This document shows, piece by piece, positions 13,289-55,662 of a stretch of DNA of 64,000 nucleotides. Where the stretch lies: assembly GCA_934630515.1 (NCBI GenBank), contig CAKTVV010000012.1, positions 7,578-71,577 of the forward strand, read 5' to 3'. Numbering within the stretch: the first letter of the stretch is position 1; each line of letters begins with the position of its first letter. Both the position numbers and the translations under genes were made by a program. The notes under the pieces were generated by a model. It saw only the letters and a list, made by a program, of their open reading frames with translations, was not told the origin of the DNA and did no database searches. Source of the stretch: an uncultured Eubacteriales bacterium (lineage in GTDB: Bacteria > Bacillota > Clostridia > Oscillospirales > Acutalibacteraceae).

Positions 13289-14569
13289 ATGAAACACGCA
13301 AAAGGAAGAAAATGGCTGCCGCTGCTGCTGCTGATCGGCTGTCCGGTGTTCTTGATCGCCGGATTGCTGTTCTATCTCATCGGCGGCAACTGGGCCATGG
13401 GCATATTGCTGGCAATCTTCAGTCTGCTGAGTCTGTCGCTGGCATTGGCGCTGGCGCCGGGTATGAAGCCGCCGGTGCGGCTGGGCGGACGCATCGGCGC
13501 CGGGGTCTTCACCGGGCTGCTGGGGGTGCTGGCGCTGGGCGCCCTGTTCCTAGTGGCGATGCTGAACACCTCCCTGCTGCCCGCCATGAAGACCAAGTAT
13601 GTGCTGCGGTTCTACCAGACCTCCAACCCGTGGCTGGTGTCGGCATTCACGCCCGAGAGCAACATCCAGCGGATCTTTAAGGAAAACGGGGTGGAGGCGC
13701 CGGATGACAGCACCGATATCGGCTCCATCAGCATCACCACCTCCACGGCGCCCACCACCACGGAGAGCGCCCCCTCCACCACGGCAACCACCACTACGAC
13801 CACCACGCAGGCGACGACCACCACCACCCGCAGCCCCGAGGCGGCGAAGCCGGAGGATTATCCCGCCACCGTGATCTTTGAAGAAAACGGGGTCCGGGTG
13901 TCGGAAATCAAGAATGCGAATTTCACCGCCCGGCTGGCGGAGATCAGCGACCCCAAGCGGGTGTCGCTGGGGGTCACCAACCGGTACGGACAGTTCGGGG
14001 AAAAGCTGCTGAATATGTGCCAGCGCACCGACTCCCTGCTGGGCATCAACGCCGGCGGCTTCTACGATCCCAAGGGCTCCGGCAACGGCGGCATCCCCTC
14101 CTACCTGCTCATCCGGGACTATGAGGTGGTATACACCGACGGACAGGAGCGGCATAACGTCATCGGTCTCAACGACGAGGGCGTGCTGATCCTCGGCAAT
14201 TTCACCAACCAGGAGATCAAGGACCACAAGATCAAGGAGGGCACCTGCTTCAAGCCGTATCTGATTGTCAACGGCAAGAAATCCACCTTCTACGGCGAGG
14301 CAGGCGGGCGTGACCCCCGTTCCGCCATCGGGCAGCGCCCGGACGGCACCATCCTGCTGCTCACCGCCGACGGACGGCAGTCCGGCATGGAGGGCGCCAA
14401 TCAGCGGGAGATGGGCAACATCATGGAGGCGTACGGCGCCTATAATGCGGCGGCGCTGGACGGCGGCTCCTCCACCACCATGGTGCTCAACGGGCAGATC
14501 ATCAACAAGCCCTGCTCCCTCTACGGTCCCCGGTATCTGAACACCGCCTGGCTGGTATCCAAGCAATAG
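13289..14569 (+). CDS. phosphodiester glycosidase family protein, membrane-anchored with a Thr-rich linker
   Basis: LGINAGGFYD and RSAIGQRPDGTILLLTADGRQ...ALDGGSSTTMV match the NAGPA/DUF2233 fold signature. N-terminal TM helices and a TTATTTTTTTQATTTTT linker are present. Confidence 0.85.
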   Translation: MKHAKGRKWLPLLLLIGCPVFLIAGLLFYLIGGNWAMGILLAIFSLLSLSLALALAPGMKPPVRLGGRIGAGVFTGLLGVLALGALFLVAMLNTSLLPAMKTKYVLRFYQTSNPWLVSAFTPESNIQRIFKENGVEAPDDSTDIGSISITTSTAPTTTESAPSTTATTTTTTTQATTTTTRSPEAAKPEDYPATVIFEENGVRVSEIKNANFTARLAEISDPKRVSLGVTNRYGQFGEKLLNMCQRTDSLLGINAGGFYDPKGSGNGGIPSYLLIRDYEVVYTDGQERHNVIGLNDEGVLILGNFTNQEIKDHKIKEGTCFKPYLIVNGKKSTFYGEAGGRDPRSAIGQRPDGTILLLTADGRQSGMEGANQREMGNIMEAYGAYNAAALDGGSSTTMVLNGQIINKPCSLYGPRYLNTAWLVSKQ

Positions 14570-15977: not shown

Positions 15978-16014
15978 AAAAAAGCCCCGCCGCTCATACA
16001 TGAGCGGCGGGGCT
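15978..16014 (-). terminator. rho-independent terminator of the 22032-16081 operon
   Basis: 14-bp stem AGCCCCGCCGCTCA / TGAGCGGCGGGGCT, followed by a T run on the minus strand. Confidence 0.75.
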
Positions 16015-17021: not shown

Positions 17022-17666
17022 TTATTCCTCTACGGAATACACCACATTGTCCAATGCCGAGAGCTGGGACACATCCATATCGATCCGCTTGTCGATGACC
17101 ACATTGATGCCCACATTGCCCTGAATCCCGCTCTTGGGAGCGAAGATCTGGTAGGTGAAGCACTCCGGTATGGCTTTTTCCAGCGCCCGCACCACATCGT
17201 TCACCCGATAGGCGTCGTCGATCTCCACATAGATCACCTCGGCGGACTTGCGCTTGCGCTCAAACCGGGCGAACAGCACGATGGTGGTCAGGAAAAGCAT
17301 CGTCACCACCACAGCCCCCACATAATATCCGTACCCCAGCGCCACGCCGATGGTGGCGGTGGTCCACACCCCCGCCGCCGTCGTCAGCCCGGTGATGATA
17401 TTATTGGATTTGAGGATGATCATGCCTGCGCCCAGAAAGCCGATGCCCGACACCACCTGCGCCGGAATCCGGAACACATCGCCGCTGCCCAGAAAACTGT
17501 GGACAAACATGCTGGTCATAGCGGTCATGCAGGAGCCCAGACACACCAGGATATGGGTGCGCATCCCTGCCGCCCGTCCGTGCCGGGCACGCTCGCTACC
17601 AATAAGACCGCCGATCACCACCGCCGCCAGCGCCCGCATCACCGTTTGTAAAAGCATTTCTTTCAT
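17022..17666 (-). CDS. MgtC/SapB family protein
   Basis: GSERARHGRAAGMRTH motif. ATG 17666 overlaps the upstream stop (ATGA). Confidence 0.85.
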   Translation of the reverse strand: MKEMLLQTVMRALAAVVIGGLIGSERARHGRAAGMRTHILVCLGSCMTAMTSMFVHSFLGSGDVFRIPAQVVSGIGFLGAGMIILKSNNIITGLTTAAGVWTTATIGVALGYGYYVGAVVVTMLFLTTIVLFARFERKRKSAEVIYVEIDDAYRVNDVVRALEKAIPECFTYQIFAPKSGIQGNVGINVVIDKRIDMDVSQLSALDNVVYSVEE

Positions 17667-18973
17667 GGTATCTCCTTGCTCTCCTCGTCCGCTATCTCGA
17701 ACAGCAGCCGCCCGTCGGCATCGGTATAGGCGGAGCAGATCCGTCCGTCCTCCAGACGGCATGCCACCCGCCCCCGCCAGCAGAAGCCGCTCACTGTCTC
17801 CGGAATCTCCCGGCGGGGACGCTCGGTATATTGGCAGTATGCCCAATCCTTTTCCCGCATGAACCGGTTCACATCGGTATACCGATGGCCAAACGCCCGG
17901 TCGCCGCACAGCCGCCACACATAGGTGTCATCGGTCTCGAAGCCATCCAGCGTATACCGGTCGCTGTAATGGAGGGTGCCCAGCGCCACCCGGTTCTTCC
18001 AGTCGATCTCCCAGAGGAATCCGTTGTCGGTCATGGCGTATACCCGCCCGTTGGCGCCCGGCTTCAGCCCGTTTTCCACCACCCTGCCACAGCCGGCGGT
18101 AAACACACCGGTCAGCGGCGCCGGGGCATAGGGCGGGCGCACCGCCCCCGCCGGACGGACATAGTCGGCAGGCTCCTCGATCCGCCCTGTGTCGTGGTTA
18201 TAGGTGCGCACGGTCAGCTGCCCGTTTTTCTCGTCCAGTATCCGGGTATGCCGCTGCCCATCCCGGGAGCAGGAGGGGGCGGCGCCGACGGTGAAATAGG
18301 CGATCCCGTCGGTCAGCGCCTGACTGTCCGGGTGATGATGCCCCATATGGTAATGCCCGGAGAACCACAGGGCGATCTGCCGGTAGCGGCGTGCCAGCGC
18401 CGGCCATACCTCGATGCCGTGATCCTGATCAAGATAGGCATTCGCCGCCCGCACATGCACCGTCGGCACCGTCAGCAGTCCGCAGCCCATCGGCGGCGCA
18501 TGGGTGATCAGCACCGTGGGCTTTTCCGGCTCCCGCTCCAGCTCCGCCGTCAGCCAGCGCAGGCTGTCCGGCGAAACGTAGCACTCATATTCAAAGTAGA
18601 AATCGTTCCGGGGCTGCGGCTCGATGTTCACGCAGATCACCCGGAAGGTGTCAAACTCCAGCACGGTATTCCGGGGCGGGCTGCCGAAGGCACGGGCGTA
18701 GTTCGCCGCCACCGTGCCGCTTTTCATCTGCCGCTCCCCCGATTCATATTGCACGTCGTGGTTGCCCACCAGCGCCAGCGGCCGGGGAATGCCCGCCCGC
18801 TCAAATGCCGCCGCCACCCGATGGAACGCCTCATAGTTGCCGAAAATATCCCAGTAGCCGTAGTCCCCCACCAGAATCGTATGATCCGGGTGCAGCGCTG
18901 CGATCTCCGCCGCTACGGTATCCAGAGACTCATCCTTCTCGTATTGCAGATCTCCCACAATGGCGATTCTCAT
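17663..18973 (-). CDS. metallophosphoesterase with a C-terminal beta-rich domain
   Basis: GDLQY, VGDYG, GNHDV, THAPP and GHYHMGHHH motifs. ATGA overlap with the upstream GH-like gene. Confidence 0.85.
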   Translation of the reverse strand: MRIAIVGDLQYEKDESLDTVAAEIAALHPDHTILVGDYGYWDIFGNYEAFHRVAAAFERAGIPRPLALVGNHDVQYESGERQMKSGTVAANYARAFGSPPRNTVLEFDTFRVICVNIEPQPRNDFYFEYECYVSPDSLRWLTAELEREPEKPTVLITHAPPMGCGLLTVPTVHVRAANAYLDQDHGIEVWPALARRYRQIALWFSGHYHMGHHHPDSQALTDGIAYFTVGAAPSCSRDGQRHTRILDEKNGQLTVRTYNHDTGRIEEPADYVRPAGAVRPPYAPAPLTGVFTAGCGRVVENGLKPGANGRVYAMTDNGFLWEIDWKNRVALGTLHYSDRYTLDGFETDDTYVWRLCGDRAFGHRYTDVNRFMREKDWAYCQYTERPRREIPETVSGFCWRGRVACRLEDGRICSAYTDADGRLLFEIADEESKEIP

Positions 18974-21900
18974 TGCGCTTCCTCCTTAAACAAACGAATG
19001 ACGGGGGCGGACAGAATGCCGGTCTCCTGAAAACAGTAGCCCTCCGTATAGTTGGCATCCACATCCCATGAGGACGGCAGAATATAATAGTGCGGGTCGG
19101 CGATCCGGCGATTGTGAATGGGACCGAAGGTGTTGTTGCGGTTGCCATAGCACACCAGCTCCAGCGTATGCCGCCCCCGGGTAAGAGACGTGCGCACCGT
19201 AAAGGGCGCCCAGGCGATCAGACCCGCATCCCGCCCGTCCACCCGCACCCGGATACAGGGGGCGGCAAAATCCGCCACAGCGATCTCCGCCACACACGCC
19301 TCGGTATCCAGCTCGGTGCGGTAGACCACCGTGCCGCCGTAGAAGGGCATTCCCTGCCGCCCGGGAGCGGTAAAGCCCTCGGCATCCGACGCCGGCTGCA
19401 GGGTCACGGCGGTGCCGTCCAGCGCCGCCGCAAATTCGCCCAGCAGATAGCCCGGCTCCAACTGCCGCACGGTGGTGATCGGCAGCAGCACCATCAGCTC
19501 GTTTTCCCCGGCCCGGGCAGCAGGCAGCGCCACGGTGGGAATATCCTCATCCACATACCAGCCGGTGAGGGCAGTCGGCACCTCGGCTCCGTTGAACCAC
19601 AGGCGTGCCTCCCCCACCCGCTCCAGCGCCAGCTGCAGCCCTGTCAGCGGCTGGGTGCAGCGGAACGTATACCGGACATACACCGGATACCGGGGAGGGT
19701 TCTCCACAATATACGGCTGCGCCTCAGTGGGCGTCATGCCCAATATCCGGCAGATCCACGTATTCTGCGCCAGCACATAGTCCTCATCGCCGTAGACGGT
19801 GCCGTCCAGCGACACCCGGCACCGATCCAGCACCACGCAGTTCGGCTCCGTCCGGGTACACACCGCCCGCTCCGGCACAATCACCCGGTACGGCTGCGGC
19901 GGCGTCTCCGGGTGCAGCGGCGCCGGGCGCTCCTGCGTCAACCGCAGCAGCAGGCTATCATTGGCGTACCAATCCCGGCGCACCAGCGTTTTGCCCTTTT
20001 CCACCGTATAGTCCGCCGGCTCCGTCGTCCCGGTCAGGGTGTTATACACCGTTACGCCGTATTCTCCGGCGATCTCAACGGTCACCCGCTCCGGCGTGAC
20101 GGTGCGGCGGGCGGGGTCGGTCTTGCCCAGCTCCCGGGCGGTGGCGATCAGCAGCCAGCGGTCGCCGTCCTTTTCGCTGAGACGGCAGAGCTTATCCGAC
20201 GTGCCGACGGGCTGCCCCGCCTGCGCAATGCGCACCCGGCGGCAGAACTCCAACGCCTCCGGCAGCGCCGCCAGCGTCGGCAGCACCATCGCCTGCCGAT
20301 ACAGCGCTTCCACCCGGCGGCTAGGACGGCCGTCCAGATACCGGGGGCACTCTCCCAGAAAGATCACCCTGCCGCCGGTGTGCAGAAACCGCTCCAACAG
20401 CGCCACGGTGGTCTCCCGCAGCGTCAGCACGGGCGGCACCACCACGGCGGCATAGGACATGGCGCCTACCTGCAGCCGCTCGGAGCAGGCGGTCTCCTGC
20501 GCTGGCAGATTGCCCTCGCAGAGAAAATCAAAATCATAGTTGGCGTACAGCAGCGTCCGGATCACGGCGTGAATCTGCTGCTCCTGCTGCCGGATGGCAG
20601 CGGCGGACTTATCCCGGGGCCCAACGGACAGCATCATGCTCTCGATGGGATGGATCACCGCCACATCCACCACATCCCGGCTGCCCTCGAACACCACATT
20701 CAGCCGGGCGTAATGCTCCTCCAGCGTCCGCAGCTCCCGGCACCAGGGCGCCTGCTCGTTAAAGGAGGCGGGATAATCCCGCTTAGCACTGCCCTTCATG
20801 GAATACATTGCCAGATGGGGCACCCGGAGGGTCACCCCGCACACCGCCTGCCAATCGCCCTGCATCTTCAGACATTTGAAGTCGAAATCCCAGCCGGTGA
20901 CGCCATACAGCTCCGACAGCATCCCCGGCTTTCCGTACTGCCGCACCACCGACTGGGTCTGCTTGGCGGTGAGCAACTCGATGTGGTCGAACAGCATATC
21001 GATGCCGGGAATATCAAAGGCGGGATACAGCTGCATCAGATCGCCGCCCCAGCTGAGCTGCTCAAACAGCTCGTCCTCCATCATCAAATGCCCGCAGAAC
21101 CGCAGCCCCTGCCGCTGCGCCGTGGTACGCAGTGTATCAAAAAACGCCTCCCGTGTCAATCGGGTGGTCAGCTGAAAATAATCGTACCGCAGGGCGCTGT
21201 GAACCCCCTCCCGGTCCCAGAACAGCTCCGGCAGCCGGTCTATGAGGTCATAGCCATAGGTTTCCCGGAACCGCTCCGGCAGCCGATAGGTCCAGCAGAC
21301 CGCCGCCGCTCCGGTGCTGGTCTCCTCCGGCAGCCGGATAGGCATATGCCGGGGTTCATCGGAGAAAATGGTGGGGATCGTTTTCCCGTATTCCGCCCCG
21401 AAGCGGCGAAAATATTCCCCATGGGTCAGCTCCGTAAAGCGCACCATCGCCTCCGGCTGCATAATATCTGCATAGGTCTGGAAATTATACCGCCCGCTGG
21501 GAGCCATGGTCTCGGAATAGGCGTATATCTTACGGTGCGCCGCCGGCTCCTCCGGCCGGATCCGCCGGTAGGAGCGCAGCCAACCCGCAGCGGTAAATTC
21601 CACATCGTAGCAGCCCACCAGATAGGCGCCGCCGCTCTCCACGGCGGCATCCCGGTCGGCGGTGAGGGGCGGCAGGCTCTCCTCGTCGGCGGTGAGAATC
21701 AGCGTACGCTGCCGATACCGGGGGGTACAGGTCACAGCGCCCCCTGCATAGCCGGAGGGCCACCGATCCTCATCGTAGAGACACGCCTGCATCCCGGCAG
21801 CCTTTGCCGCCTCGATGCACGCCCCCACACAATCCAAAAACGCTTCACTGAGATACGCCGTTTCCAGCCCGTAGCGGGAATGCATATAAAAGCCGCCGAA

Positions 21901-23141: not shown

Positions 23142-23171
23142 AGCCCCGCCAACCGGTCGGTTGGCGGGGCT
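23142..23171. terminator. bidirectional terminator hairpin between the araC-like gene and the end of the 30-kb block
   Basis: 13-bp stem AGCCCCGCCAACC / GGTTGGCGGGGCT with loop ggtc and T-rich flanks on both strands. Confidence 0.6.
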
Positions 23172-23210: not shown

Positions 23211-26200
23211 TTACTCTACGGTGATCTTCATCACGCCGCCATAATGGGAACCGTACATGGTGTGCTGCGGAATAATCACCGTCTCCCCCGTGGTCGGGTC
23301 CGTTCCGGAAATGTGCGTGTAGAAGTTGGCGTGCCAGTGGCCGTTAAAGACCGCCTTCACCACATCCGCATTGTTCCGGATCAGGTCGCACACCTGATTG
23401 GTGGTCGCATCGCTGATGGAATTGCCCACAAAATCCAGGCTGGTGGTGGTGTTGTATACGCCATTGTTGTTTTCCGCTGTACCGAACTGACCGCCCCGGC
23501 CGTAGCCGCTCATATCGTACACGGTGGTCTCATCCGGTGCGATCGGAATATGCTGGAATACGAGGATCGGGATCTGCTTTTCCCGTGCCGTCTGAATATC
23601 CGCTGTCAGCGGGGCGATCTGGCTCGCCCAATACTTACCCTGCGAGTTATCCAGCACCACCAGCATATAGGCGGGCTTGCCGTCGGCATCGTTTACCGTC
23701 TCGCTGTGATAGTACACATCGTTGGACCAGCCCTCCTGAATCCGGGCAAAGCCCTCCGCCGGGGTGATGTCCGTCAGCGCCTTGTTATCCGGCTGGGACA
23801 GCTCCTTGACCTCGTGGTTGCCCACCGCCATGAGCACGCTGCCGTTCACCGACCGCCGGGTGATAAGATTTCTCGTCACATCCAGCGCTCCATAGGTGAG
23901 ATAGTCCACGGCATCGCCGCCCATAACTGTCTTCTGGAAGGTGGCGGCGTATTTCGCCACCGCCGCCTGCTTGCGGATGGCGTCGCCGGCACGCAGCCAG
24001 CTGCGGCCACGATAGGAGGACAGCGCATTGATGTTCTTGCTCTCAATGTCCCGGCTGTTGATATACGCCATATGGGGGTCGGTGTAGAAGCACAGCTCGC
24101 TCTTCGTGATGTTGAAGCCGCTGTTCACGGTGACGCTGCGCTCATACAGGCCGTTGGACAGCTGCAGGATCTTGTGGTTGGGATCCGTGGGATCCTCATA
24201 GAGGGTCGTTGCCCCCGCATACAGGCTGTTGCGGTAGTTCGGGAACACCGTATCCTCCACATGCCGGACGATCGCCTCGTAGTCGGCATTGGTCTCGCCG
24301 CCAGCAATGGCCTCCGCCGCTACCTTATAGGCGCTGGTGGTGTCATCCTCGGTGTAGAGCACCCGCTCGATGCCGTTGCCGTCCCGATAGCGGATATAGC
24401 CCCGCACCTGATGGAACTCGTCGTAAGAATCAGCCGTGATGCCGGTAATGACGCACCGATAGCTGCGCTCGGTATCCGACTCCAGTATGCCGGTCGGTGC
24501 CAGCGTGATCGGTGTGGCACCCACGGTCTTGGGGGTGAATACATTCACATCCTCCACCGTCGGCTCCCATTCCAGCACCACCGGCGTATCCAGACAGATC
24601 TCCCGTCCGCCCGCCGTATCGGAGGGCAGGGTGATGGCGCCGGATTCCACCACGGTAGGCAGCGCCGCCAAAAATGCCTTGCTCTGCTTAAAGGCAACGC
24701 TCAGCGCCGTTCCGGAGAGGGTATCCACCGCCACGTCTGCGATCCCGAAGTCGTCAGCGGTCAAAGCTACATACTGCGCCGTCAGCACATCCCCGTGCTG
24801 ATAGGTGTCCACCGCCTGCACATACTGTCCGGCGGCGTTTTTCCAGCCCAGGAACGCCTGCCCGGCGACGTACGCCGCCGTTTCCTTGGTCAGATCGACG
24901 GTGACGTTATCGTATACGGTGATAGTCTTGCCGTCGTTGGCGTAGTATTCCACCACCTGCACGGTATAGGAGCCGGCAGCCGGCAGCGTCAGCACGCCGC
25001 CCACCGAAACCGCCTCGTTGCCGTTTGCATCCGTGGCGATAGCGGTGTAGCCCTCCGCCACGGTATAGACACCCACCTTGTCGGTCAGCGTCAAAGCGCC
25101 GGGCATTTTGGTTGTGACCTGCACCATATAGATCCCATCCTGAGCGGTCACGCCGCTGAATTTTGTCACATCGCCCACGCAGGTGGCACCGTTCACCAGC
25201 ACCTGAATGGCGCCGCCCACCGTCAGCGGACCGCTGCCGTCCACCAGTGTGACTGTGGAAGCGTCCTTCACCTCGAGGCTGAGATTGCCGTCGATGGTGG
25301 TGGTACCGGAGCCGTTATTTCCGATATACACCTCGGGAGCCGCCGCCGCATTGTCAAACACCAGCTGCACATTTCCGGCGAACCGGTTGGAATTATTGCT
25401 GTACGCCTCCAGATAGATGGTCTGGTTTTTGCCGTTTGCCTTATAGGCGTTGCGGAACACCACCGTCGTATCTGCCGCCGCCGTGTTGCCGCCCTTGAGA
25501 TAGCCGAGATTCGTTCCCAGCGCACCCCGGGCCTTCACCTGTCCGTTCCAGCGGGTGGGCTGGGTGGCAGAGGCGTTGGTCTCGTAGTCGGCGCCGTAGC
25601 CGTCGGTATAGTCGTTATCGAACATGCCGTACAGCACCGAATCGTCATAGGTGACGCTGTAACCGTTGTGATAGATATACTGATTGACCCGGCGGGTACC
25701 CACCAGCGTCAGATCCTTGAACACCGTAGGACCGCCGATGGTCAGCGGTGCATTGCCGCCCAGCGTGTTGCTGAAGGGCAGATAGGTGGGATCCTCGGCG
25801 GTATTGTACAGTCCCTGCACCACCACCGTCGCCTCATAGGTGGGGGTAGCGGTATACCGGTTGCTGGTCGCCTCCGCATTGGTGAGGTTCACCCAGGAGG
25901 TAAATCCGTGCTGGGGCATCACCTTATTGGTGACGCCGTTCACCTTGTAGTTGCCGACGATCTCATCCACGCCCTTGGTCGCCCGCTCGGCGCCCTTCAG
26001 GATATAGAGATGCGCCGTAGCCCCGGCAGTCAGTCCGTCGGCGTTGATAGTATTCAGCGCATCCACCACGGATGCCGCCGGAGCGGTGGCGGTGCGTCCG
26101 TCGCCGGTGCCGCCCGCCTGCACATAATAGTTTCGGGAGGCCGCCTCGGGATCCTCCCACTCGATGGAAGCCAGCCCCAGCAGGCACCGGCGCAGCAGCG

Positions 26201-28877
26201 CCGCATCTGCCTCGTCCACGGTGCCGTCGGCATTGGCATCGGCGGCGGCGCAATAGACACCGCTCATCTTATCCGCAATGCTCACCAGATCCCGGATATC
26301 CAGCGTGCCGTCCATATTGGCGTCGCCGTACCGCACCACCTGCGCCGTCTGATAGGCTGCATCCCGGGCATACAGCACCGGGATCGCCACCCGCATGGAG
26401 AAGGTGGACATATCCGGCTTGATATACGCCGTATGGGCGCCGGAGTGCAGCCCGGTCGCCAGCACGGTGGGGTTATGGGGATCTAGCTCCACCGTCTGAT
26501 AGTCCCCGTTGTCGATCTTCACCTGCACCTGATTGCCTGCAGCCGCATTGGCGGCGAACAGCGCCAGCTCGGTGCCGGTAAACTCCACCGCCAGCAGCGG
26601 CTCGGTGGTGTAGCTGTCCTTTTTATCCAGCCGGAAATCGCCGGTATAGGTGCCCATGGTCACCGACCCGGAGTTGAAGCGGAACTCACTGCCGCCCAGC
26701 TCCTGACTGCGCTGCATCAGCACCGCCGTGGGCTGGATCACCGTCACGTTGCCGTCCAGCAGGGTCTTGCTCTGCAGCGGCGGCATGGGATGCTTCGTCA
26801 CCGCCGGCTCCGCAAAGAGGGGCGCCACCAGTGAGTTATGCAGATATTCCTTGATCACATCGAAATACAGCGCATAGCCCGCCTCGTTGGGATGGACGGT
26901 ATCGCTCATATAGCTACTCCAGTCGGCATCCGCCACCCGGTTTGCCAGCGCCGAGCCCACATCCACGGTGGGAATGTTGTAGACCGCCGCCATATCCTCG
27001 TGCGCCTGCGCCTGGGCATACAGCGTGCCCTTACGGGCGTTTTCCGCCATCGTGCGCTCGGTGGTCAGCACCGTCACGATGTCGCATTCCGGCAGCGCCG
27101 CCCGCACATTCCGCACGATCGTCTCATACTGCCGGGCGGTGTCATCGTAGCTGCTGCTGCTGTAATAGTCGTTCACCGCATACTCGATGAACAGCAGGTC
27201 GGGCTTAGCGGAGATCACATCCCGCTCCACCCGGTAGGAACCCAACAGAGTGCCGCTCTCGCCGGTGGCCCGGTTGATCTGGGTGATGCTGGCAGTGGGG
27301 AAATTCTCCGCCAGCCAGCTGCCCACCTGCGCCCGCCAGGACAGAGTATCCTGATCGGCGCTGGCCAGTCCGGCGCCTTGGGTCACCGAGCCGCCGAAAT
27401 AGACCACGTTGACCGCCTCGCCGTTTTGCAGCTTGGTATAGGTGTTTTCCAGCGAGCTGCGGTACCGGATATAGTCCTCATATTCCGTCAGCCGCTCCGC
27501 ATTGCCGCCCTCATACTGGGCGGTCATGGTACCGTCGCCGTTATCCTGCCAGCCGATGAACCGAGAATTGGACGGCTTCACCGACACAGTGGACAGATCG
27601 GCGGTTTCATAGACGTTGTACTCGCCGGCACCGCCCACGGTCAGCGTCTCGCTGCCGTAATACAGGGTATCCGGGTGGTTGGCGGCATCGTAGGCATAGG
27701 CGTAGCCTACCGTGCTATGTACCGTATAGGTGCCCGCCGTCTCGGTGAAGGTCAGCAGCTCGCTGTTGCTGCTGTAGTTGGTCAAAATGTAGCTGCCGCC
27801 CTTGACGGTGACGTTCTTGAACTCCTCCACATTGGTGGTGGTGGGAGCGCTGGTATAGCTGCCGTCCTTACGGGCATCCCAGTCGGTGTACAGGGTCTTG
27901 GAATCCTTGATCACCTGATAGGCGCCGTTGATTGTCACGGCGCCGGGACGCTCCGCCAGCACCAGCTCCCGGGCGGACTTGACGTTCAGATTCAGATTCT
28001 TCCGATAGGTGATGGGAAAATACCCGTTGCCGAAATACACCAGCGGCGCACCACCGGAGGAACCGCTGACGATATCAAAGGTCAGGGTCACATCCTCGGC
28101 GTAGCTCTCTGCCGCCTTGTTGCCACCAAGCAAGATAGGAGACAAGGGAGAACCGCCGGTGATGCTGTGGGTACCCAGCAGGAAATTGAACTGAATATCC
28201 ACCGGCTGCTCATACAGGGTGCCGTTGGTGGTGCCGCAATAGATCTCCATGGACTGCCGCAGCATGATCGTGCTGTCCCCGGTCATGGGCCAGTTGTTGA
28301 TATAGCCGAAGTGGGGGCTGGTCTTGTCCGTGTGAGAGAAGGTCACGTTGTTGCCGTTGAGCCGGATGGCTTTCTGGTTCCAGCCGCTGATGATGTTCAG
28401 ATTCTGGAAATGGGTGGGACCGGTCACCACCATTTCGTCACCTTGAACCGCCCGGTTGCCGGTCACCAAATAGGTGCGCCCGGTGTTGTCCGGATGGGGC
28501 TGCACCACCAACTGCGCCGTATATGTCTCCGGCACCGCATTCTCTGCCGTCCATGACGCCAAGCCGTGCTCCGGCTTATCGGCGTATGTCAGGTTGTTAT
28601 TGTAGGTGAACCGATCCGGACGCTGCATGATGTATATGTTGGCCACATCGCCGGCGCCCAGTCCGTCCTCATTGACGGCGTGGATGGCAGCCGCCACCGT
28701 CGCCGCCGGGGTCTCCTCGGTCTTGCCGTCGCCGGTGCCGCCGTTCTGCACATAATAATTGTGCTCGGCAGCAGCGGTGCGCAGGGTGCCGGCGCCGCTG
28801 GCTGCCAGACTGAAGCAGGACAGCAGCATCGCCAGAGACAGCACAAGGCTGCACACCGTGCGTAGCTGTTTTTTCAT
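23211..28877 (-). CDS. 1888-aa secreted multidomain protein: beta-helix-like module, SGNH esterase, dockerin, second beta-helix-like module, metallophosphoesterase
   Basis: AGGAGG RBS precedes ATG 28877. Signal peptide MKKQLRTVCSLVLSLAMLLSCFSLAASGAG. The domain motifs are listed in the sub-features below. Confidence 0.9.
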   Translation of the reverse strand: MKKQLRTVCSLVLSLAMLLSCFSLAASGAGTLRTAAAEHNYYVQNGGTGDGKTEETPAATVAAAIHAVNEDGLGAGDVANIYIMQRPDRFTYNNNLTYADKPEHGLASWTAENAVPETYTAQLVVQPHPDNTGRTYLVTGNRAVQGDEMVVTGPTHFQNLNIISGWNQKAIRLNGNNVTFSHTDKTSPHFGYINNWPMTGDSTIMLRQSMEIYCGTTNGTLYEQPVDIQFNFLLGTHSITGGSPLSPILLGGNKAAESYAEDVTLTFDIVSGSSGGAPLVYFGNGYFPITYRKNLNLNVKSARELVLAERPGAVTINGAYQVIKDSKTLYTDWDARKDGSYTSAPTTTNVEEFKNVTVKGGSYILTNYSSNSELLTFTETAGTYTVHSTVGYAYAYDAANHPDTLYYGSETLTVGGAGEYNVYETADLSTVSVKPSNSRFIGWQDNGDGTMTAQYEGGNAERLTEYEDYIRYRSSLENTYTKLQNGEAVNVVYFGGSVTQGAGLASADQDTLSWRAQVGSWLAENFPTASITQINRATGESGTLLGSYRVERDVISAKPDLLFIEYAVNDYYSSSSYDDTARQYETIVRNVRAALPECDIVTVLTTERTMAENARKGTLYAQAQAHEDMAAVYNIPTVDVGSALANRVADADWSSYMSDTVHPNEAGYALYFDVIKEYLHNSLVAPLFAEPAVTKHPMPPLQSKTLLDGNVTVIQPTAVLMQRSQELGGSEFRFNSGSVTMGTYTGDFRLDKKDSYTTEPLLAVEFTGTELALFAANAAAGNQVQVKIDNGDYQTVELDPHNPTVLATGLHSGAHTAYIKPDMSTFSMRVAIPVLYARDAAYQTAQVVRYGDANMDGTLDIRDLVSIADKMSGVYCAAADANADGTVDEADAALLRRCLLGLASIEWEDPEAASRNYYVQAGGTGDGRTATAPAASVVDALNTINADGLTAGATAHLYILKGAERATKGVDEIVGNYKVNGVTNKVMPQHGFTSWVNLTNAEATSNRYTATPTYEATVVVQGLYNTAEDPTYLPFSNTLGGNAPLTIGGPTVFKDLTLVGTRRVNQYIYHNGYSVTYDDSVLYGMFDNDYTDGYGADYETNASATQPTRWNGQVKARGALGTNLGYLKGGNTAAADTTVVFRNAYKANGKNQTIYLEAYSNNSNRFAGNVQLVFDNAAAAPEVYIGNNGSGTTTIDGNLSLEVKDASTVTLVDGSGPLTVGGAIQVLVNGATCVGDVTKFSGVTAQDGIYMVQVTTKMPGALTLTDKVGVYTVAEGYTAIATDANGNEAVSVGGVLTLPAAGSYTVQVVEYYANDGKTITVYDNVTVDLTKETAAYVAGQAFLGWKNAAGQYVQAVDTYQHGDVLTAQYVALTADDFGIADVAVDTLSGTALSVAFKQSKAFLAALPTVVESGAITLPSDTAGGREICLDTPVVLEWEPTVEDVNVFTPKTVGATPITLAPTGILESDTERSYRCVITGITADSYDEFHQVRGYIRYRDGNGIERVLYTEDDTTSAYKVAAEAIAGGETNADYEAIVRHVEDTVFPNYRNSLYAGATTLYEDPTDPNHKILQLSNGLYERSVTVNSGFNITKSELCFYTDPHMAYINSRDIESKNINALSSYRGRSWLRAGDAIRKQAAVAKYAATFQKTVMGGDAVDYLTYGALDVTRNLITRRSVNGSVLMAVGNHEVKELSQPDNKALTDITPAEGFARIQEGWSNDVYYHSETVNDADGKPAYMLVVLDNSQGKYWASQIAPLTADIQTAREKQIPILVFQHIPIAPDETTVYDMSGYGRGGQFGTAENNNGVYNTTTSLDFVGNSISDATTNQVCDLIRNNADVVKAVFNGHWHANFYTHISGTDPTTGETVIIPQHTMYGSHYGGVMKITVE
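23214..24101 (-). other. calcineurin-like metallophosphoesterase domain (C-terminal 296 aa)
   Basis: All five motifs occur in order: FYTDPHM (DxH), GGDAVDY (GDxxD), VGNHE (GNHE), VFQHIP (H) and NGHWHAN (GHxH). Confidence 0.8.
26169..26336 (-). other. type-I dockerin module (internal)
   Basis: YGDANMDGTLDIRDLVSIADKM...ADANADGTVDEADAALLRRCLLGL forms two EF-hand-like Ca-binding repeats. Confidence 0.8.
26844..27416 (-). other. SGNH/GDSL hydrolase domain
   Basis: VVYFGGSVTQG (block I), GESG (block II), EYAVNDY (block III) and DTVHPNEAGY (block V). Confidence 0.75.
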
Positions 28878-28927
28878 GGGTATTCCTCCTTTTTGATTGT
28901 ATATATTCAAACGGCACAAGGTCCGTC

Positions 28928-31660
28928 TCATGCCTCCAGCCAATCCGCCGTCGCTGCGGCGTCCACCGCCTGCAGCGCCTCCCGGAAGCCGATCCCGTCG
29001 GCGGGATACAGCAGGCTGCCCTTACTCACGCTGTAGCAGCTGTGACGATCCTGATAGTAGGTGTTGCCCTCGATCCCGAACCGATCCGCCGCCCGGGGTG
29101 CATAGAAAAAGTAGCCGTTCGCCACATCAAACACATTGGCGGTGATATGAAAATCTGCGATCGTTCCATTGGTATAGGCGTTGTTCCAAGCCAAGATAAA
29201 CGCCTGATTATCCTTGTTCTGCCGCTGGCTGCACAGCCCGTATCCGGCGAACCGCAGGATATTCTCCGTGAACCGGATGCTCTCCATCGTCACATGGTCG
29301 TTATCCCCGTCCCAGAACTCAAAATTCATTCCGCTGTACTCCACCAGATTATGCGTATAGGTCAGACCCCGGTACACGCCGCCGCTGTAGCCCTGAAAGG
29401 TCATCGCCGCATCGTAGATCTGCCAAAACCGGGTATACTGCACCGTGCAGTCGGCGGCGGCACCCCAAAACTGAATGGCGTTGCCGTAGCGACCGGCCGT
29501 GTACTGCCCGGTGGAGCTGTCCACCGTGTTCTCCCCGCCGATCCAGCGGAATGCGCAGCCGGTCACGGTAATGCCGGAGCAGCTGCCTAGATTGACGGCA
29601 TGCTCGGCAAAATGCTCGATCACCAGATTCTCCAGCGTGATATCGGCGGCATGAAAGCCATTCATAAACCGCCGGGTGGAGGAGATCTGAATGGAGCGGA
29701 ACCGCCATCCGGGATTGATCTGCCGCCAATAGAAATACAGCTTCCCCGTCGTGCGGTCAAAATAATAGTCTCCATCGTCATCCACCTGTGTCCGGTCGGC
29801 ACAGCGCTGCCCGATATAGGCACCGTCGTCCAGCACCACACCGCCCACGCCGCTGCCCTCCACGGCAGCCGTCCACACATACCCGTCCGCCGTATCCCAC
29901 AGCGCCGGGTCCGCATACTCCCGCCGGGAGCCGGTGATGACCGGCTTAGCCCCGCTGCCGTAGGCACCGTACCGGACCCCCGTTTGGGGAACCAGATAGT
30001 CCGTCAGCGGAAATGTATCCCCCCGGCGAAATCGCACGGCATCCCCGGCGGCATAGGTGAGACGGTTTAGCTTGGCTGCCGAAATCGGACGATCGGGGCT
30101 GCAGCCGTCGTTTTGATCGTCACCGTCGGCTGCCACATAATAGGTCGTACCGCCGGCAGCCGCCATCACCGTATCCGGTCGGGCGGCGATCGCCGCCCCC
30201 AGAGCTGCGGCAGCCGCATCGGCACCGCCGGTCAGCGCCGCCGCAGGCTGCAGACGGCTTGCCGCCGTCTCCCATACAAGGGGAGCCAGCCCCAGCAGAT
30301 GCTGCCGCAGACGGATGCTGTCTGCCGGGGTCAGCGCCCCGTCTGCATCGCAGTCGGCAGCGGACAGATACCGTCCCTGCGCCTGCCGCTCCCAGAGAGC
30401 CAGCAGATCCCGCACATCCAGCTCACCATCCAGATTGCCGTCGCCATAATGTACCACATCCCGCTCGGCGGCAAACAGCGTCTCGTCATAGGGCACATAG
30501 CCGGCGGTATAGTCCAGCGCCGCCGCCTGTGCCGTGCCGAAGCTGTCGCTGCCCACGGCAGCGGTACTCCAATTGCTGCGCCAGCCGCCCATATCCCAGA
30601 TGGTGGTCTTTTGCAGCCGGCTGCGGCGGGCGGGATCGTCGGCAGCATACAGGGTGAACTCCGCCACATACAGCTCTGTGATGTACTTGGCCTCCTGCCG
30701 GAAAAAGAACCCGGCATACAGGTGCGTATACGCCGCTGCCTGCGCAGCGGTCAGCGTAAAGGTGTATTCCACCCGCAGCCCATCGTCCTTAACAGCAGCC
30801 GTCACCGGATTGGTCGCCACCGAGGATTGGAACAGGCGTACCCGATCGGTGTTGCTGTCCGGCGTATCCAGAAGCACAAAATCCACCGATCCATTCAGGG
30901 CGCCGCTGACAAAATAGTAGGAGAAGGCGGCGGTGTAGACCCGCCCGCTTTCCAGTGCTCCCACCGGCAGCAGCAGCGACTCTCCCACCATATCCGCATT
31001 TTCATTGCGTATCCTCAGCATGGTGCGCCACCGCTCCGGGCGGTATTCCTCCACCCGCAGGGCAGTAGCGCTGTCGCTGTCCGTCCCCTCGACGGCGCCG
31101 GCGGCGAAGCTCTGATTATTGGCGAGCCAGCCGGTCAGACCCCGGCTGAAATCGCCATTGCGCAGCCGGTTGGTCTTTTCCGCATCCCCGGCATCCCACA
31201 CCCGGGCGTCGAAGAAATAGCCCTCGCCGGTGGCGGCCTTTTTCAGCCGGAGGATAAAATAGACGTCCTTTCCCGCCAGACTGCCGCCGTTGTTATCCGC
31301 CGTCGGCATCGTGACGGTATAGGTATACTCATTGGCTGTCCCCACCGCCGTAACAGCGGTCCGCTCCGCCGTGGCGGGTACGCCGACCCGCTCCCCCCAG
31401 CGCTCCGACACCACCCGGAACACGACCTCAAGCTCCGTCTCCGGAATGGTGTCGGTCAGCGCAAAGGAGAAACCATACTGACCCCCCGGCGTTACCGCCA
31501 CCGGGGTGCGCAGCTCAAAATACTGCGCCGTACCGGTCTTACACAGGTGCAGCACCCGCCGCCCGGCGGTATCCTCCGCCGTCTGCGCCGCAGCGCCGCC
31601 GGGCAGGAGTGCCAGAAGCAGCCATACAGCCAACAGGAGGGAACCGATCCTTTTACCCAT
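28928..31660 (-). CDS. 910-aa secreted protein: two jelly-roll modules, dockerin, right-handed beta-helix
   Basis: AAAGGAG RBS precedes ATG 31660. Signal peptide MGKRIGSLLLAVWLLLALLPGGAAA. The C-terminal half is paralogous to 45808..47163 and 47178..48857 (TYYVAADGDDQNDGCSPDRP, GDAVRFRRGDTF, YGAYGSGAKP). Confidence 0.9.
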   Translation of the reverse strand: MGKRIGSLLLAVWLLLALLPGGAAAQTAEDTAGRRVLHLCKTGTAQYFELRTPVAVTPGGQYGFSFALTDTIPETELEVVFRVVSERWGERVGVPATAERTAVTAVGTANEYTYTVTMPTADNNGGSLAGKDVYFILRLKKAATGEGYFFDARVWDAGDAEKTNRLRNGDFSRGLTGWLANNQSFAAGAVEGTDSDSATALRVEEYRPERWRTMLRIRNENADMVGESLLLPVGALESGRVYTAAFSYYFVSGALNGSVDFVLLDTPDSNTDRVRLFQSSVATNPVTAAVKDDGLRVEYTFTLTAAQAAAYTHLYAGFFFRQEAKYITELYVAEFTLYAADDPARRSRLQKTTIWDMGGWRSNWSTAAVGSDSFGTAQAAALDYTAGYVPYDETLFAAERDVVHYGDGNLDGELDVRDLLALWERQAQGRYLSAADCDADGALTPADSIRLRQHLLGLAPLVWETAASRLQPAAALTGGADAAAAALGAAIAARPDTVMAAAGGTTYYVAADGDDQNDGCSPDRPISAAKLNRLTYAAGDAVRFRRGDTFPLTDYLVPQTGVRYGAYGSGAKPVITGSRREYADPALWDTADGYVWTAAVEGSGVGGVVLDDGAYIGQRCADRTQVDDDGDYYFDRTTGKLYFYWRQINPGWRFRSIQISSTRRFMNGFHAADITLENLVIEHFAEHAVNLGSCSGITVTGCAFRWIGGENTVDSSTGQYTAGRYGNAIQFWGAAADCTVQYTRFWQIYDAAMTFQGYSGGVYRGLTYTHNLVEYSGMNFEFWDGDNDHVTMESIRFTENILRFAGYGLCSQRQNKDNQAFILAWNNAYTNGTIADFHITANVFDVANGYFFYAPRAADRFGIEGNTYYQDRHSCYSVSKGSLLYPADGIGFREALQAVDAAATADWLEA
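30284..30454 (-). other. type-I dockerin module
   Basis: YGDGNLDGELDVRDLLALWE...ADCDADGALTPADSIRLRQHLLGL. Confidence 0.8.
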
Positions 31661-31751
31661 CAGACACCCGCTCCTTTGATGCGCCGAGCAGCTTCCCTGC
31701 ATAAGCACCGCCCGGGTACAGAGAGACCCGGGACAGAGGCGCCCGGCGCTT

Positions 31752-52808: not shown

Positions 52809-52859
52809 ACAGTTTCTCCCATTCGTCATGCAGGCACACGGTGCTCCGTCCGGTGCGGC

Positions 52860-55494: not shown

Positions 55495-55534
55495 CGCTGT
55501 TTCCTCCGTTTCGATCGTTGGTATGAATACATTT

Positions 55535-55562
55535 ATTGTACTGACAGAGGGGGCTTTGTCAA
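55535..55562 (-). promoter_or_regulatory. sigma-A-type promoter of the SGNH hydrolase gene
   Basis: The minus strand reads TTGACA (plus 55557-55562), a 16-nt spacer, then TACAAT (plus 55535-55540). Confidence 0.5.
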
Positions 55563-55662
55563 CCGAAAAGCCAAAATGTGCGAAAATACGACAGAAATAC
55601 CACGATTTTGAAAGAAATTCCGCCAGCCGCCGCCCGCTCCAAAAAAATTTGCTGTACACCTC

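Follow-up and report, generated by a model that had tools for sequence, protein, structure and literature searches.

An apparent fusion of two paralogous modular enzymes joins a CE17-like esterase, a dockerin, and a divergent metallophosphoesterase in an uncultured gut Clostridia species

The gene and its domains

The DNA analyzed here, a 64,000-nucleotide stretch from an uncultured human-gut Clostridia species (the window), carries on its minus strand an open reading frame (positions 23211 to 28943) that encodes an 1888-aa protein from an ATG at 28877. A preliminary description, made from the letters of this DNA, had reported a multidomain 1888-aa protein here; the gene is intact, and the positions given for its named domains were borne out (Table 1). 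The N-terminal signal peptide read from the translation indicates that the protein would be exported. Full-length homologues at 97, 81, and 54% identity, each on independent contigs, together with a whole-gene dN/dS of 0.12 (versus L007), argue against an assembly chimera or a pseudogene. Values for individual domains ranged from 0.04 to 0.18, the sole exception being the 30-codon signal peptide, whose dN/dS of 0.35 comes from two differences. Purifying selection acts on all domains of the protein, and the C-terminal metallophosphoesterase (MPE) is the most constrained part (0.04).

Table 1. Features of the gene and its surroundings, in the direction of transcription
Feature	Position in window	Strand	Basis and remarks
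Ribosome-binding site AGGAGG	28885..28890	-	7 nt before ATG; sequence read directly
Complete coding sequence, 1888 aa	23214..28877	-	Stop codon at 23211-23213; ORF list, translation
Putative signal peptide, ~aa 1-27 (MKKQLRTVCSLVLSLAMLLSCFSLAAS)	28797..28877	-	Translation; homologues keep the same N terminus in consensus
Module 1 (SGNH-proximal type), aa 35-431	27585..28775	-	HMM delimitation; AlphaFold2
Short linker domain, aa 432-470 (FIGWQDNGDGTMTAQY)	27468..27584	-	Read from sequence
SGNH (GDSL) esterase domain, CE17-like, aa 471-690	26808..27467	-	Pfam PF13472; PDB 6HFZ
Beta-sandwich (CBM-like) domain, aa 691-845	26343..26807	-	C-terminal to SGNH domain; CE2_N match
Type I dockerin, aa 846-905	26163..26342	-	Pfam PF00404; two Ca-binding loops
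Module 2 (MPE-proximal type; module 1 family), aa 911-1315	24933..26147	-	BLASTP versus module 1; HMM delimitation
Small beta domain (aa 1316-1370), beta-sandwich "mid" domain and helical linker (aa ~1371-1560)	24198..24932	-	AlphaFold2
Calcineurin-type metallophosphoesterase, aa ~1561-1888	23214..24197	-	Motifs; PF00149 in homologues; Foldseek; dN/dS 0.04
Terminator-like hairpin, 13-bp stem	23142..23171	-	Pattern scan; separates stop codon from convergent AraC gene

Two halves can be distinguished. Half A (aa 35 to 905) comprises a beta module, a CE17-like SGNH domain, a CBM-like sandwich, and a dockerin; half B (aa 911 to 1888) comprises a second beta module, a small beta domain, a beta-sandwich, and the MPE. 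In half A, Pfam Lipase_GDSL_2 (PF13472) matched aa 494 to 670 with an E value of 1e-22 (81.8 bits against a cut-off of 32.9). SGNH blocks I, II, III, and V were found within aa 488 to 678, the segment (26844 to 27416) to which they had been assigned, and contribute S497, G539, N569, D659, and H662. Across 13 homologues the S, G, D, and H never vary; N569 is D in one of them. Residues ~479 to 681 align with chain residues 23 to 212 of PDB 6HFZ (RiCE17) at an E value of 7e-20, and this match to the founder places the domain, by similarity, in CAZy family CE17. The sandwich that follows has a weak, sub-threshold CE2_N jelly-roll match (E value, 1e-4) and is kept together with the SGNH domain in every half-A homologue. 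The linker preceding the esterase possibly resembles a Listeria-Bacteroides repeat; homologue P0020 has weak Pfam matches to Flg_new and Flg_new_2 (E values, 0.002 to 0.005) after its modules. Elsewhere in the window lies a 542-aa SGNH protein (54034 to 55659), which comparison showed not to be a paralogue of half A.

The two-repeat dockerin described in the middle of the protein (26169 to 26336, or aa 848 to 903) scored above the Pfam cut-off: Dockerin_1 (PF00404) matched aa 850 to 900 with 24.9 bits against 22.9. Both DxNxDGxxDxxD loops are intact (aa 852 to 863, DANMDGTLDIRD; aa 880 to 891, DANADGTVDEAD), the domain matches PDB dockerins 2vn5_B and 2vn6_B, and its dN/dS is 0.12. A Pfam scan of ~40 of the ORFs in the window found no cohesin.

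Assignment of the C-terminal domain required several lines of evidence. Pfam gave no PF00149 match on aa 1590 to 1888 even at E values up to 10, and no MPE was found when PDB sequences were searched with the full-length protein or with family profile A1, which matched only through the SGNH domain. All five calcineurin-type motifs reported for 23214 to 24101 were nevertheless present within aa 1598 to 1851: DPH (1600 to 1602), GDAVD (1654 to 1658), GNHE (1686 to 1689), H1776, and GHWH (1846 to 1849) fit the patterns DxH, GDxxD, GNH(D/E), H, and GHxH, with D1600, H1602, D1655, D1658, N1687, H1688, H1776, H1847, and H1849 as motif residues. These motifs are invariant in 12 close homologues and 96 to 99% conserved in 69 family members from ~60 species, save for the motif-III Asn, which is Gly in 22 of the 69, mostly stand-alone proteins. 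PF00149 does match the C-terminal regions of homologues P0009, P0016, and P0020 (26.9 to 32.7 bits against a cut-off of 21.5), to which the domain aligns at 28 to 41% identity. Its AlphaFold2 model (pLDDT, 88.7) matched MPE structures in Foldseek searches, led by Lmo2642 (2xmo; E value, 1e-7) and Rv0805 (2hyp and 3ib7; E values, 1e-5 to 2e-5) and including calcineurin and PP5, with identities to Lmo2642 and Rv0805 of 12 to 14% and TM-scores of 0.4 to 0.6 on the target. Because of the conserved motifs, the PF00149 matches in homologues, and the model, we assign the domain to the calcineurin-type MPEs, as a divergent member, despite the Pfam miss.

The MPE family has a specific insert between motifs I and II (aa 1620 to 1627), which includes a conserved R1625, and a conserved C-terminal PQ motif. 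The region preceding the MPE (aa 1316 to 1560) was modeled with pLDDT values mostly of 80 to 95 and accompanies the MPE in 24 loci, and its mid domain has weak Foldseek matches to Ig-like and DUF4466 sandwiches. When both catalytic domains were checked for substituted residues, the catalytic and metal-binding residues were all present and conserved. The MPE subfamily occurs in 62 species-level genomes. Many members are ~335-aa proteins without signal peptides, which implies that substrates of the family also include small, imported, or cytoplasmic compounds. A neighboring gene encodes a 436-aa Metallophos protein; it belongs to a different subfamily.

A repeated beta module and the joining of two paralogues

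The two large modules are homologous (BLASTP, 30% identity over 432 columns; E value, 5e-29), as had been proposed. Their opening strings, described as near-identical, are present but only ~60% identical by our count. The AlphaFold2 model of module 1 (pLDDT, 86.7) is all-beta with many short strands, and suggests a solenoid-like fold with a C-terminal beta-sandwich sub-domain. Pfam did not match the modules, and Pfam and NCBIfam gave nothing usable for the modules, mid domain, or MPE in isolation. Foldseek searches of PDB and BFVD with the module model returned no significant match (best E values, 0.83 and 0.017, respectively). These non-significant lists were mostly beta-helix enzymes and tailspikes, such as rhamnogalacturonan lyase 5olq (E value, 0.83), and a beta-helix assignment is therefore tentative.

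A word-indexed search with the module profile recovered only 2 proteins and was replaced by an exhaustive HMMER search, which found 293 cluster representatives among 1.84 billion. Individual proteins contain 1 to 19 stretches matching the profile, some members exceed 4000 aa, and the C-terminal sub-domain also repeats alone. In sets of 15 or 9 aligned modules, the invariant columns hold only V, Y, I, W, L, G, P, F, T, and A, with no invariant acidic or basic residue. These features bear on the idea that both ~400-aa modules are catalytic beta-helix depolymerases, lyases or hydrolases, in a four-activity protein. Such a reading would suit the many short strands, the make-up of the Foldseek lists, and the N-terminal string "YYV..GGTGDG...PA," which we take to resemble a pectate-lyase-fold cap; it is very unlikely, given the lack of significant matches in Pfam, PDB, and BFVD and the up to 19 stretches per protein with a sub-domain that repeats by itself. 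Because conserved polar residues are absent, we rejected a lyase or hydrolase role. The module apparently represents a new, uncharacterized, non-catalytic all-beta family.

The domains carried by module proteins are informative. In 36 sampled members, Pfam identified SGNH domains (9 proteins), dockerins (8), Metallophos (6), GDPD (3), CE4 (1), and a sialidase-like BNR (1), and no classical glycoside hydrolase. In homologue P0014, a GDPD domain accompanies a dockerin and five copies of the module. Co-occurrence with SGNH, CE4, MPE, and GDPD fits the stripping of acyl and phosphodiester decorations. As a large secreted repeat protein with a dockerin, from a module family in which some members exceed 4000 aa, the query could instead be mainly an adhesin or surface-layer component whose enzyme-like domains are inactive binding modules, yet this is extremely improbable for a protein with complete, conserved catalytic and metal-binding residues and an MPE dN/dS of 0.04.

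Most relatives encode the two halves separately. Half A alone is found in homologues P0007, P0008, P0010, P0013, P0015, and P0017 to P0019, and half B alone in P0004, P0006, P0009, P0011, P0012, P0016, and P0020. The query aligns contiguously to these half-A or half-B proteins at 41 to 43% identity, more than the 30% between modules 1 and 2. For example, module 1 and the SGNH domain align without interruption to the final module and SGNH domain of P0007 and P0008 (42%), and module 2 and the MPE to the final module and MPE of P0004, P0006, and P0009 (41%). In the half-A-only proteins with a dockerin (P0007, P0008, P0010, and P0017 to P0019), the dockerin lies at the C-terminal end. In one relative, an 89-kb contig carries half A (P0008) and half B (P0006) as separate genes with the same orientation; their cluster has paired solute-binding protein (SBP)/permease genes and an AraC-GH106 pair in common with the window. 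Sequence comparison thus identifies two paralogous enzyme types joined end to end in this protein. Its internal dockerin and its pair of modules, read earlier as design features, are both present and are better explained as the scar of a fusion between two complete paralogous genes. An SGNH-plus-MPE combination, without a dockerin, appears again in P0005, a protein 34% identical from a distant lineage.

Genomic context and proposed function

The gene sits in a ~40-kb glycan-utilization cluster with ABC permeases, SBPs, a GH106-like gene, DUF5696, and an AraC regulator, and synteny of the cluster is conserved in relatives. Many relatives of the fusion-protein family are labelled Acutalibacteraceae. 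A NAGPA phosphodiester glycosidase gene lies 9 kb from the fusion gene, and related clusters carry GH106-like rhamnosidase, rhaM, GH20, and GH36 genes. Among the neighboring genes scanned, which include GH106-like, DUF5696, and ABC transporter genes, none matched a mannanase family; a literature search on DUF5696 found no paper. When 260 ORFs from ~55 MPE-family loci were clustered, only AraC regulators were frequent (10 loci), with GH127, GH31, ADP-ribosylglycohydrolase, WbsX-like, and ABC permease neighbors at 4 loci each. Neighbors vary by species, and no single substrate emerges from this set.

We consider it fairly probable that the protein is a secreted bifunctional enzyme removing non-sugar decorations from a glycan, born by end-to-end fusion of paralogous modular enzymes. 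Once exported through the Sec pathway, the protein would be anchored by its dockerin to a partner with a cohesin, at the cell surface or on a scaffold, with the non-catalytic beta modules serving as spacers or polymer-targeting units. The SGNH triad Ser497-His662-Asp659 would hydrolyze sugar O-acyl esters, most likely O-acetyl. The MPE would use a predicted two-metal center (D1600, H1602, D1655, N1687, H1776, H1847, and H1849) and the motif-III histidine H1688 to cleave a phosphoester; the target is probably a phosphodiester, either a substituent or a linkage. Removal of these decorations could expose the glycan to glycosidases and ABC importers encoded in the AraC-associated cluster.

The earlier proposal of acyl and phosphodiester stripping before uptake is plausible and better supported than before, with regard to intact, constrained domains, a predicted export signal, and a cluster for sugar import and glycosidases; this does not extend to diesterase specificity or the identity of the substrate. 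We infer these two points, along with cohesin binding and cooperation on one polymer, the last from the fusion itself, since a natural fusion argues for cooperation of both activities. The weak structural neighbors Lmo2642 and Rv0805 suggest that the MPE may be a phosphodiesterase rather than a monoesterase or nucleotidase. The nearest solved MPE structures are cyclic-nucleotide phosphodiesterases, not glycan-active enzymes.

These same structural neighbors raise the question of whether the MPE half works at the surface as a scavenger of extracellular nucleotides or DNA, be it a nucleotidase, a nuclease, or a cyclic-nucleotide phosphodiesterase, with the acetylesterase fusion incidental and no glycan substrate common to both halves. 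Its counterparts would then be the CpdB- and UshA-type MPEs found on the surface of Gram-positive bacteria. Nucleotidases are common among secreted MPEs, and stand-alone cytoplasmic paralogues exist in this family. We regard nucleotide scavenging as quite unlikely, however: the likeness to Lmo2642 and Rv0805 is at the superfamily level only, the same scaffold module bears GDPD, SGNH, and CE4 domains in other proteins, the SGNH-MPE pairing recurs in P0005, and the gene and its relatives lie in sugar-utilization clusters, with stand-alone paralogues adjoining GH127 and GH31 genes.

A narrower version of the decoration-removing enzyme, not exclusive of it, would direct both activities at Gram-positive cell-wall polymers, either of the cell's own wall (remodeling or autolysis) or of the necromass of other bacteria. 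It would entail O-acetyl removal and cleavage of glycerol- or sugar-phosphate units in teichoic acids or rhamnose-rich wall polysaccharides. SGNH, CE4 deacetylase, GDPD, and MPE domains, the partners of the module, are enzyme classes that act on wall polymers, and the architecture of P0014, the rhamnosidase, rhaM, GH20, and GH36 genes of related clusters, and the nearby NAGPA gene all agree with such a target. GH106 and GH127 also mark degradation of pectin (RG-II), however, and the nearest characterized SGNH relative is a plant-mannan acetylesterase. A Bacillus subtilis MPE does act on lipid-linked teichoic acid (PMC11898649), but nothing links the query directly to any teichoic acid, and Pfam detected no SH3b, LysM, or CWB domain. 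We view a wall target as possible, if rather doubtful.

Gut glycan degradation is usually framed in terms of glycoside hydrolases, lyases, and acetyl or feruloyl esterases, and enzymes that take off phosphate-linked decorations are, to our knowledge, almost without example. The fusion protein ties a recognizable sugar acetylesterase to a strongly conserved, uncharacterized MPE, and relatives place GDPD phosphodiesterases on the same scaffold module. Together, these proteins point to a class of substrates among phosphate-bearing glycans and to a set of enzymes suited to them, both missed by current CAZyme annotation, as the module, mid domain, and MPE lack Pfam matches. The domain family (293 cluster representatives) and the MPE subfamily (62 species-level genomes) are newly defined here. 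Should biochemistry confirm a glycan phosphodiesterase, turnover of teichoic acids or phosphoglycans in the gut would become directly studiable.

More speculatively, the module could mark an unrecognized, cellulosome-like system, assembled via dockerins, that recruits only de-decorating enzymes to phosphate-containing glycopolymers; we think this unlikely. The recruited enzymes would be O-acetyl esterases, deacetylases, and GDPD and MPE phosphodiesterases, the hosts gut and rumen Clostridia and some Victivallales and Verrucomicrobia, and the candidate substrates teichoic acids, rhamnose-rich bacterial wall polysaccharides, and phosphomannans. If so, the MPE subfamily would be the first glycan-phosphodiesterase clade in the calcineurin-like superfamily.

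Relation to known systems

RiCE17 of Roseburia intestinalis, a CE17 acetyl-mannan esterase (PDB 6HFZ/6HH9), carries a CBM35 beta-sandwich C-terminal to its SGNH domain (PMC10154613), a position mirrored by the sandwich at aa 691 to 845. The SGNH domains are clearly homologous, with GGS(I/V)TQG, (F/Y)(S/A)VND, and D..HPN blocks in common, and both proteins come from human-gut Firmicutes and are encoded in glycan-utilization loci. In CE17, the CBM35 and the SGNH domain jointly clamp the substrate; in the query, the alignment is confined to the SGNH domain, and the ~155-aa sandwich is unaligned past RiCE17 residue 212, with its weak CE2_N match and no CBM35 match. RiCE17 is a two-domain enzyme of 378 residues, whereas the query unit lies inside a much larger protein with a dockerin and a phosphoesterase, and the scanned neighboring genes have no mannanase match. 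The characteristic CE17 activity is that of a 2-O-acetyl-mannose esterase; the query is CE17-like by sequence.

In predicted fold and in its five motifs, the MPE resembles the class III cyclic-nucleotide phosphodiesterase-type enzymes Rv0805 and Lmo2642. GpdQ also belongs to this group. Unlike Rv0805 and Lmo2642, the query MPE has the R1625 insert and the PQ motif, is predicted to be extracellular, and follows a beta-sandwich in a fusion to glycan-active domains.

The domain order has precedents in cellulosomal bifunctional enzymes with a dockerin between catalytic domains, such as Clostridium thermocellum XynZ (CE1-CBM6-dockerin-GH10) and XynY. As in XynZ, a catalytic domain, a CBM, a dockerin, and a second catalytic domain follow one another, and a single dockerin-bearing polypeptide combines an esterase with another activity. 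Here, however, the second activity is a phosphoesterase instead of a glycoside hydrolase, the protein also contains large non-catalytic beta modules, and the organism is an uncultured gut species in place of a cellulolytic thermophile. Among the papers open to searching, none mentioned dockerins together with the terms metallophosphoesterase, calcineurin-like, or glycerophosphodiester. The amylosome of Ruminococcus bromii, which GTDB classifies in Acutalibacteraceae, is a dockerin-cohesin assembly of non-cellulolytic enzymes from the human gut. It offers a parallel for gut Clostridia dockerins assembling enzymes for a non-cellulosic substrate, but involves other enzyme classes, and the window ORFs scanned here include no cohesin.

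For the proposed substrate class, precedent comes from UpsH (YpbG), a B. subtilis MPE that frees undecaprenyl phosphate from lipid-linked teichoic acid polymers (PMC11898649). UpsH is a membrane-associated enzyme of the cytoplasmic face from another MPE subfamily (COG1408); it illustrates that an enzyme of the MPE superfamily can have a phospho-linked glycopolymer as its substrate.

Architecture and origin of the 1888-aa protein

The target gene starts at an ATG at 28877, which on reading of the sequence lies seven bases 3' of AGGAGG, and its translation of 1888 aa opens MKKQLRTVCSLVLSLAMLLSCFSLAAS, a putative signal peptide of typical form. Every feature that the preliminary description had placed in this protein was matched where it had been placed. 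The proposed SGNH esterase, assigned to what corresponds to aa 488 to 678, matched Pfam Lipase_GDSL_2 at aa 494 to 670 (E = 1e-22), and the proposed mid-protein dockerin matched Dockerin_1 at aa 850 to 900, slightly over the curated cut-off, with its two calcium loops both intact. All five motifs said to be calcineurin-type (DPH, GDAVD, GNHE, an isolated His, and GHWH) are present in canonical order in the C-terminal 299 aa. The two large modules are homologous as described (30% identity over 432 columns, E = 5e-29), but their opening strings, described as near-identical, are about 60% identical when counted by hand.

Features of the target gene and its surroundings (nucleotide positions in the window unless marked aa; SBP, solute-binding protein)
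Feature	Position	Strand	Detail
Target ORF	23211-28943	minus	ORF list
Modules 1 and 2	aa 35-431 and 911-1315	minus	iterated HMM delimitation
Hairpin, 13-bp stem	23142-23171		after target stop codon, before convergent AraC gene; pattern scan
926-aa dockerin protein	28931-31708	minus	upstream of target
1356-aa CBM4_9/CarboxypepD_reg protein		minus	upstream of target
TIM-barrel isomerase-like protein; Yip1/NHL/TPR protein; DUF5696		minus	upstream of target
Two ABC sugar-import systems, one with 941-aa SBP		minus	upstream of target
941-aa SBP	42952-45774	minus	SBP_bac_8 only at aa 577-848
451-aa protein	45811-47163	minus	no Pfam match
559-aa protein	47181-48857	minus	no Pfam match; adjacent to 451-aa gene
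ADP-ribosylglycohydrolase-family gene	51336-52829	minus	upstream of target
Convergent AraC regulator, GH106-like protein, different 436-aa Metallophos, MgtC			downstream of target
This 436-aa Metallophos, a second metallophosphoesterase	17666-18973	minus	PF00149, E 3.5e-11; directly after GH106-like gene, stop/start codons overlapping
NAGPA "phosphodiester glycosidase" domain	13289-14566	plus	PF09992, E 5e-40; membrane-anchored protein with Thr-rich linker, ~9 kb from target

A homologue search with the target protein returned 21 proteins, which were mapped onto it. Two architectures were found among them, both opening with one to four extra module copies: module, SGNH domain, sandwich, and usually a dockerin (half A, aa 35 to 905 of the target), or module, mid domain, and metallophosphoesterase (MPE; half B, aa 911 to 1888). 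The target aligned contiguously with half A of P0007, P0008, and P0010 at 42 to 43% identity and with half B of P0004, P0006, and P0009 at 41%, and by these comparisons its architecture appears to be a gene fusion of a half-A and a half-B enzyme. Given this identity to separate halves, its own two modules, mutually 30% identical, are old paralogues of two types rather than products of a recent duplication within the gene. In those half-A-only proteins that carry a dockerin, no domain follows it and the chain stops shortly after, and the internal dockerin of the target would represent the former C terminus of such an enzyme. About ten residues would then join it to a half-B enzyme that apparently lost its signal peptide.

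In a single metagenomic relative, half A (P0008) and half B (P0006) are encoded by two distinct genes that are co-oriented on an 89-kb contig and lie in a cluster that has paired SBP/permease genes and an AraC-GH106 pair in common with the window. The fused form occurs in the target's lineage in P0001 to P0003 (down to 54% identity) and in the MAG locus L007, and occurs independently, without a dockerin, in P0005. Recurrent fusion is a classic sign of joint work, which suggests that the two activities cooperate. Between the target and L007, dN/dS was 0.04 to 0.18 in every domain except the signal peptide (0.35, from two differences in 30 codons); the MPE was the most constrained domain, and the dockerin (0.12) is maintained.

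Catalytic domains

The nearest solved relative of the SGNH domain was 6HFZ (E = 7e-20), the structure of RiCE17, a CE17 2-O-acetyl-mannan esterase of Roseburia intestinalis in which the SGNH domain is followed by a CBM35 (PMC10154613). The target also has a conserved beta-sandwich of about 155 aa in this position, but it did not align with the CBM35 of RiCE17, and its Pfam match to the CE2_N jelly roll was below threshold. Across 13 homologues, the catalytic Ser, block II Gly, and block V Asp and His never vary, and one of the 13 has Asp for the block III Asn.

Pfam and NCBIfam gave no match to the C-terminal 299 aa. Three independent lines, namely, motif conservation, transitive Pfam support, and predicted structure, identify this domain as a metallophosphoesterase. 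When the target is aligned with 11 homologues (26 to 98% identity), it is the motif residues that form the invariant columns, and among 69 members of the family, drawn from about 60 species, these residues are 96 to 99% conserved. The exception is the metal-binding Asn of motif III (GNH), which is Gly in 22 of the 69, mostly stand-alone proteins, and is kept as the canonical Asn in the target. The C-terminal regions of P0009, P0016, and P0020, where the target's MPE aligns, passed the PF00149 gathering score. An AlphaFold2 model of aa 1320 to 1888 was confident (pLDDT 88.7, pTM 0.88) and places a small beta domain and a beta-sandwich (aa ~1371 to 1560) ahead of the MPE core.

The top PDB matches of the MPE model in Foldseek were Lmo2642 (E = 1e-7) and Rv0805 (E = 1e-5 to 2e-5); calcineurin and PP5 came next. 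The domain is very divergent, with 12 to 14% identity to these structures, and a profile of the family found no MPE among PDB sequences. A family-specific insert between motifs I and II contains R1625, kept in 63 of the 69 members, and a C-terminal PQ motif is conserved; the subfamily is uncharacterised and new. The main rival to a glycan-directed role is that this MPE cleaves phosphodiesters of nucleotides or nucleic acids and acts on no glycan, a reading favoured by the identity of its nearest structures and opposed by its fusion partners and genomic context.

The repeated beta module

The module had no match in Pfam, NCBIfam, or PDB sequences. Its AlphaFold2 model was confident (pLDDT 86.7) and all-beta, with many short strands in a long run and then a beta-sandwich-like C-terminal part. 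Foldseek returned nothing significant in PDB (best E = 0.83) or BFVD (best E = 0.017), and these non-significant lists were filled by beta-helix enzymes, tailspikes, and adhesins. As modeled, the module is probably a beta-solenoid of a new family. Invariant residues in aligned modules are hydrophobic, Gly, Pro, or aromatic, and no conserved acid or base was found among them, which argues against catalysis.

When 1.84 billion cluster representatives were searched exhaustively with HMMER, no more than 293 module proteins emerged (155 at E<=1e-30), mostly of 1000 to 5000 aa and with 1 to 19 matched stretches each. In a Pfam census of 36 module proteins, the partners were SGNH (9), dockerin (8), Metallophos (6), GDPD (3), CE4 deacetylase (1), and BNR sialidase-like (1), with no classical glycoside hydrolase family. 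For example, in the homologue P0014 five modules are combined with a dockerin, a GDPD at the C terminus, and a weak match to CBM4_9. By this census the module consistently carries enzymes removing acyl or phosphodiester groups. The preliminary description had supposed that the protein strips such decorations from a polymer, and the partner set is the strongest, if indirect, support for that idea. The module family is uncharacterised, new, and tied to esterases and phosphodiesterases.

Genomic context, proposed role, and known systems

Members of the MPE subfamily turned up in the genomes of 62 species representatives, every one an uncultured MAG, and most of these came from gut samples of humans, ruminants, and other animals. 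By label, most belong to the Clostridia (Acutalibacteraceae, Oscillospiraceae, Lachnospiraceae), with Victivallales, Lentisphaeria, and Verrucomicrobia also represented; close relatives of the target came from human-gut metagenomes, Hadza samples included. Some members are large secreted proteins, others are ~390 aa long and resemble lipoproteins, and a third form, of ~335 aa, has no signal peptide. Stand-alone ~335-aa paralogues are common (L004 17026-18063, L006 17927-19012, and many of loci L024 to L068), and those in L004 and L006 lie two genes downstream of half-B genes.

Genes beside subfamily members vary, with AraC regulators in 10 loci and GH127, GH31, ADP-ribosylglycohydrolase, WbsX-like, and ABC permease genes in 4 loci each; the ADP-ribosylglycohydrolase family adjoins MPE-family genes in four other species (L017, L036, L044, and L063). 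Genes near relatives include rhaM, GH36, GH20, GH3, GH2, and further dockerin proteins. The 436-aa Metallophos of the window was ruled out as a subfamily member, the target-family profile having no match to it.

Directly upstream of the target, a 2.8-kb segment (28915-31751) holds the gene for the 926-aa secreted protein, which likewise has an internal dockerin and, after it, a beta-helix-like C-terminal domain opening "TTYYVAADGDDQNDG"; Pfam gave no match to this protein at E<=0.001. The segment is absent from L001 (97% identical), which has just 87 nt there, and from L007 (93%), and is a strain-specific gene insertion or deletion. Synteny with L001 stops after MgtC, near window position 15986, and L001 23124-24860 carries two genes absent from the window, one for an ISL3-family transposase and one, partial, of the MPE family. 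The 941-aa SBP is unusually long, its ~570-aa N-terminal part had no Pfam match, and the syntenic cluster of the distant relative L069 has kept a counterpart of 944 aa. There, 455- and 580-aa genes (18212-21344) occupy the same place between two SBP genes as the 451- and 559-aa pair, a likeness of length and position.

Domain identities, intact conserved catalytic residues, fusion, selection, context, and partner repertoire were established here, and beyond them a mechanism can be proposed. The protein would be exported and then kept at the cell surface or, presumably by cohesin binding, on a scaffold via its dockerin. The SGNH Ser-His-Asp triad would take off O-acetyl groups, and the binuclear MPE centre, as a diesterase rather than a monoesterase, would hydrolyse a phosphodiester decoration or linkage of the same glycan. 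Their joint action would open the glycan to the cluster's glycosidases and importers, with the modules serving as spacers or targeting units.

For the class of substrate, our first guess would be phosphate-bearing glycopolymers of the bacterial wall, be they teichoic acids or rhamnose-rich polysaccharides. This guess draws on the SGNH/CE4/GDPD/MPE repertoire, the rhamnosidase-like neighbours, the nearby NAGPA gene, whose product may be related to sugar-1-phosphodiester substrates, and the precedent of UpsH, an MPE that acts on lipid-linked teichoic acid (PMC11898649). Plant pectic glycans or fungal phosphomannan may also be substrates.

Each recognisable piece of the target comes from a known superfamily: SGNH/CE17-like, type I dockerin, and calcineurin-like MPE. 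In the literature library that was searched, no paper pairs "dockerin" with "metallophosphoesterase," "calcineurin-like," or "glycerophosphodiester," and a phosphoesterase as the second activity of a dockerin-bearing protein is new. Dockerin-based assembly for non-cellulosic substrates is represented by the R. bromii amylosome. In C. thermocellum, XynZ and XynY reportedly carry a dockerin between two catalytic domains, and the dockerin of the target is likewise placed.
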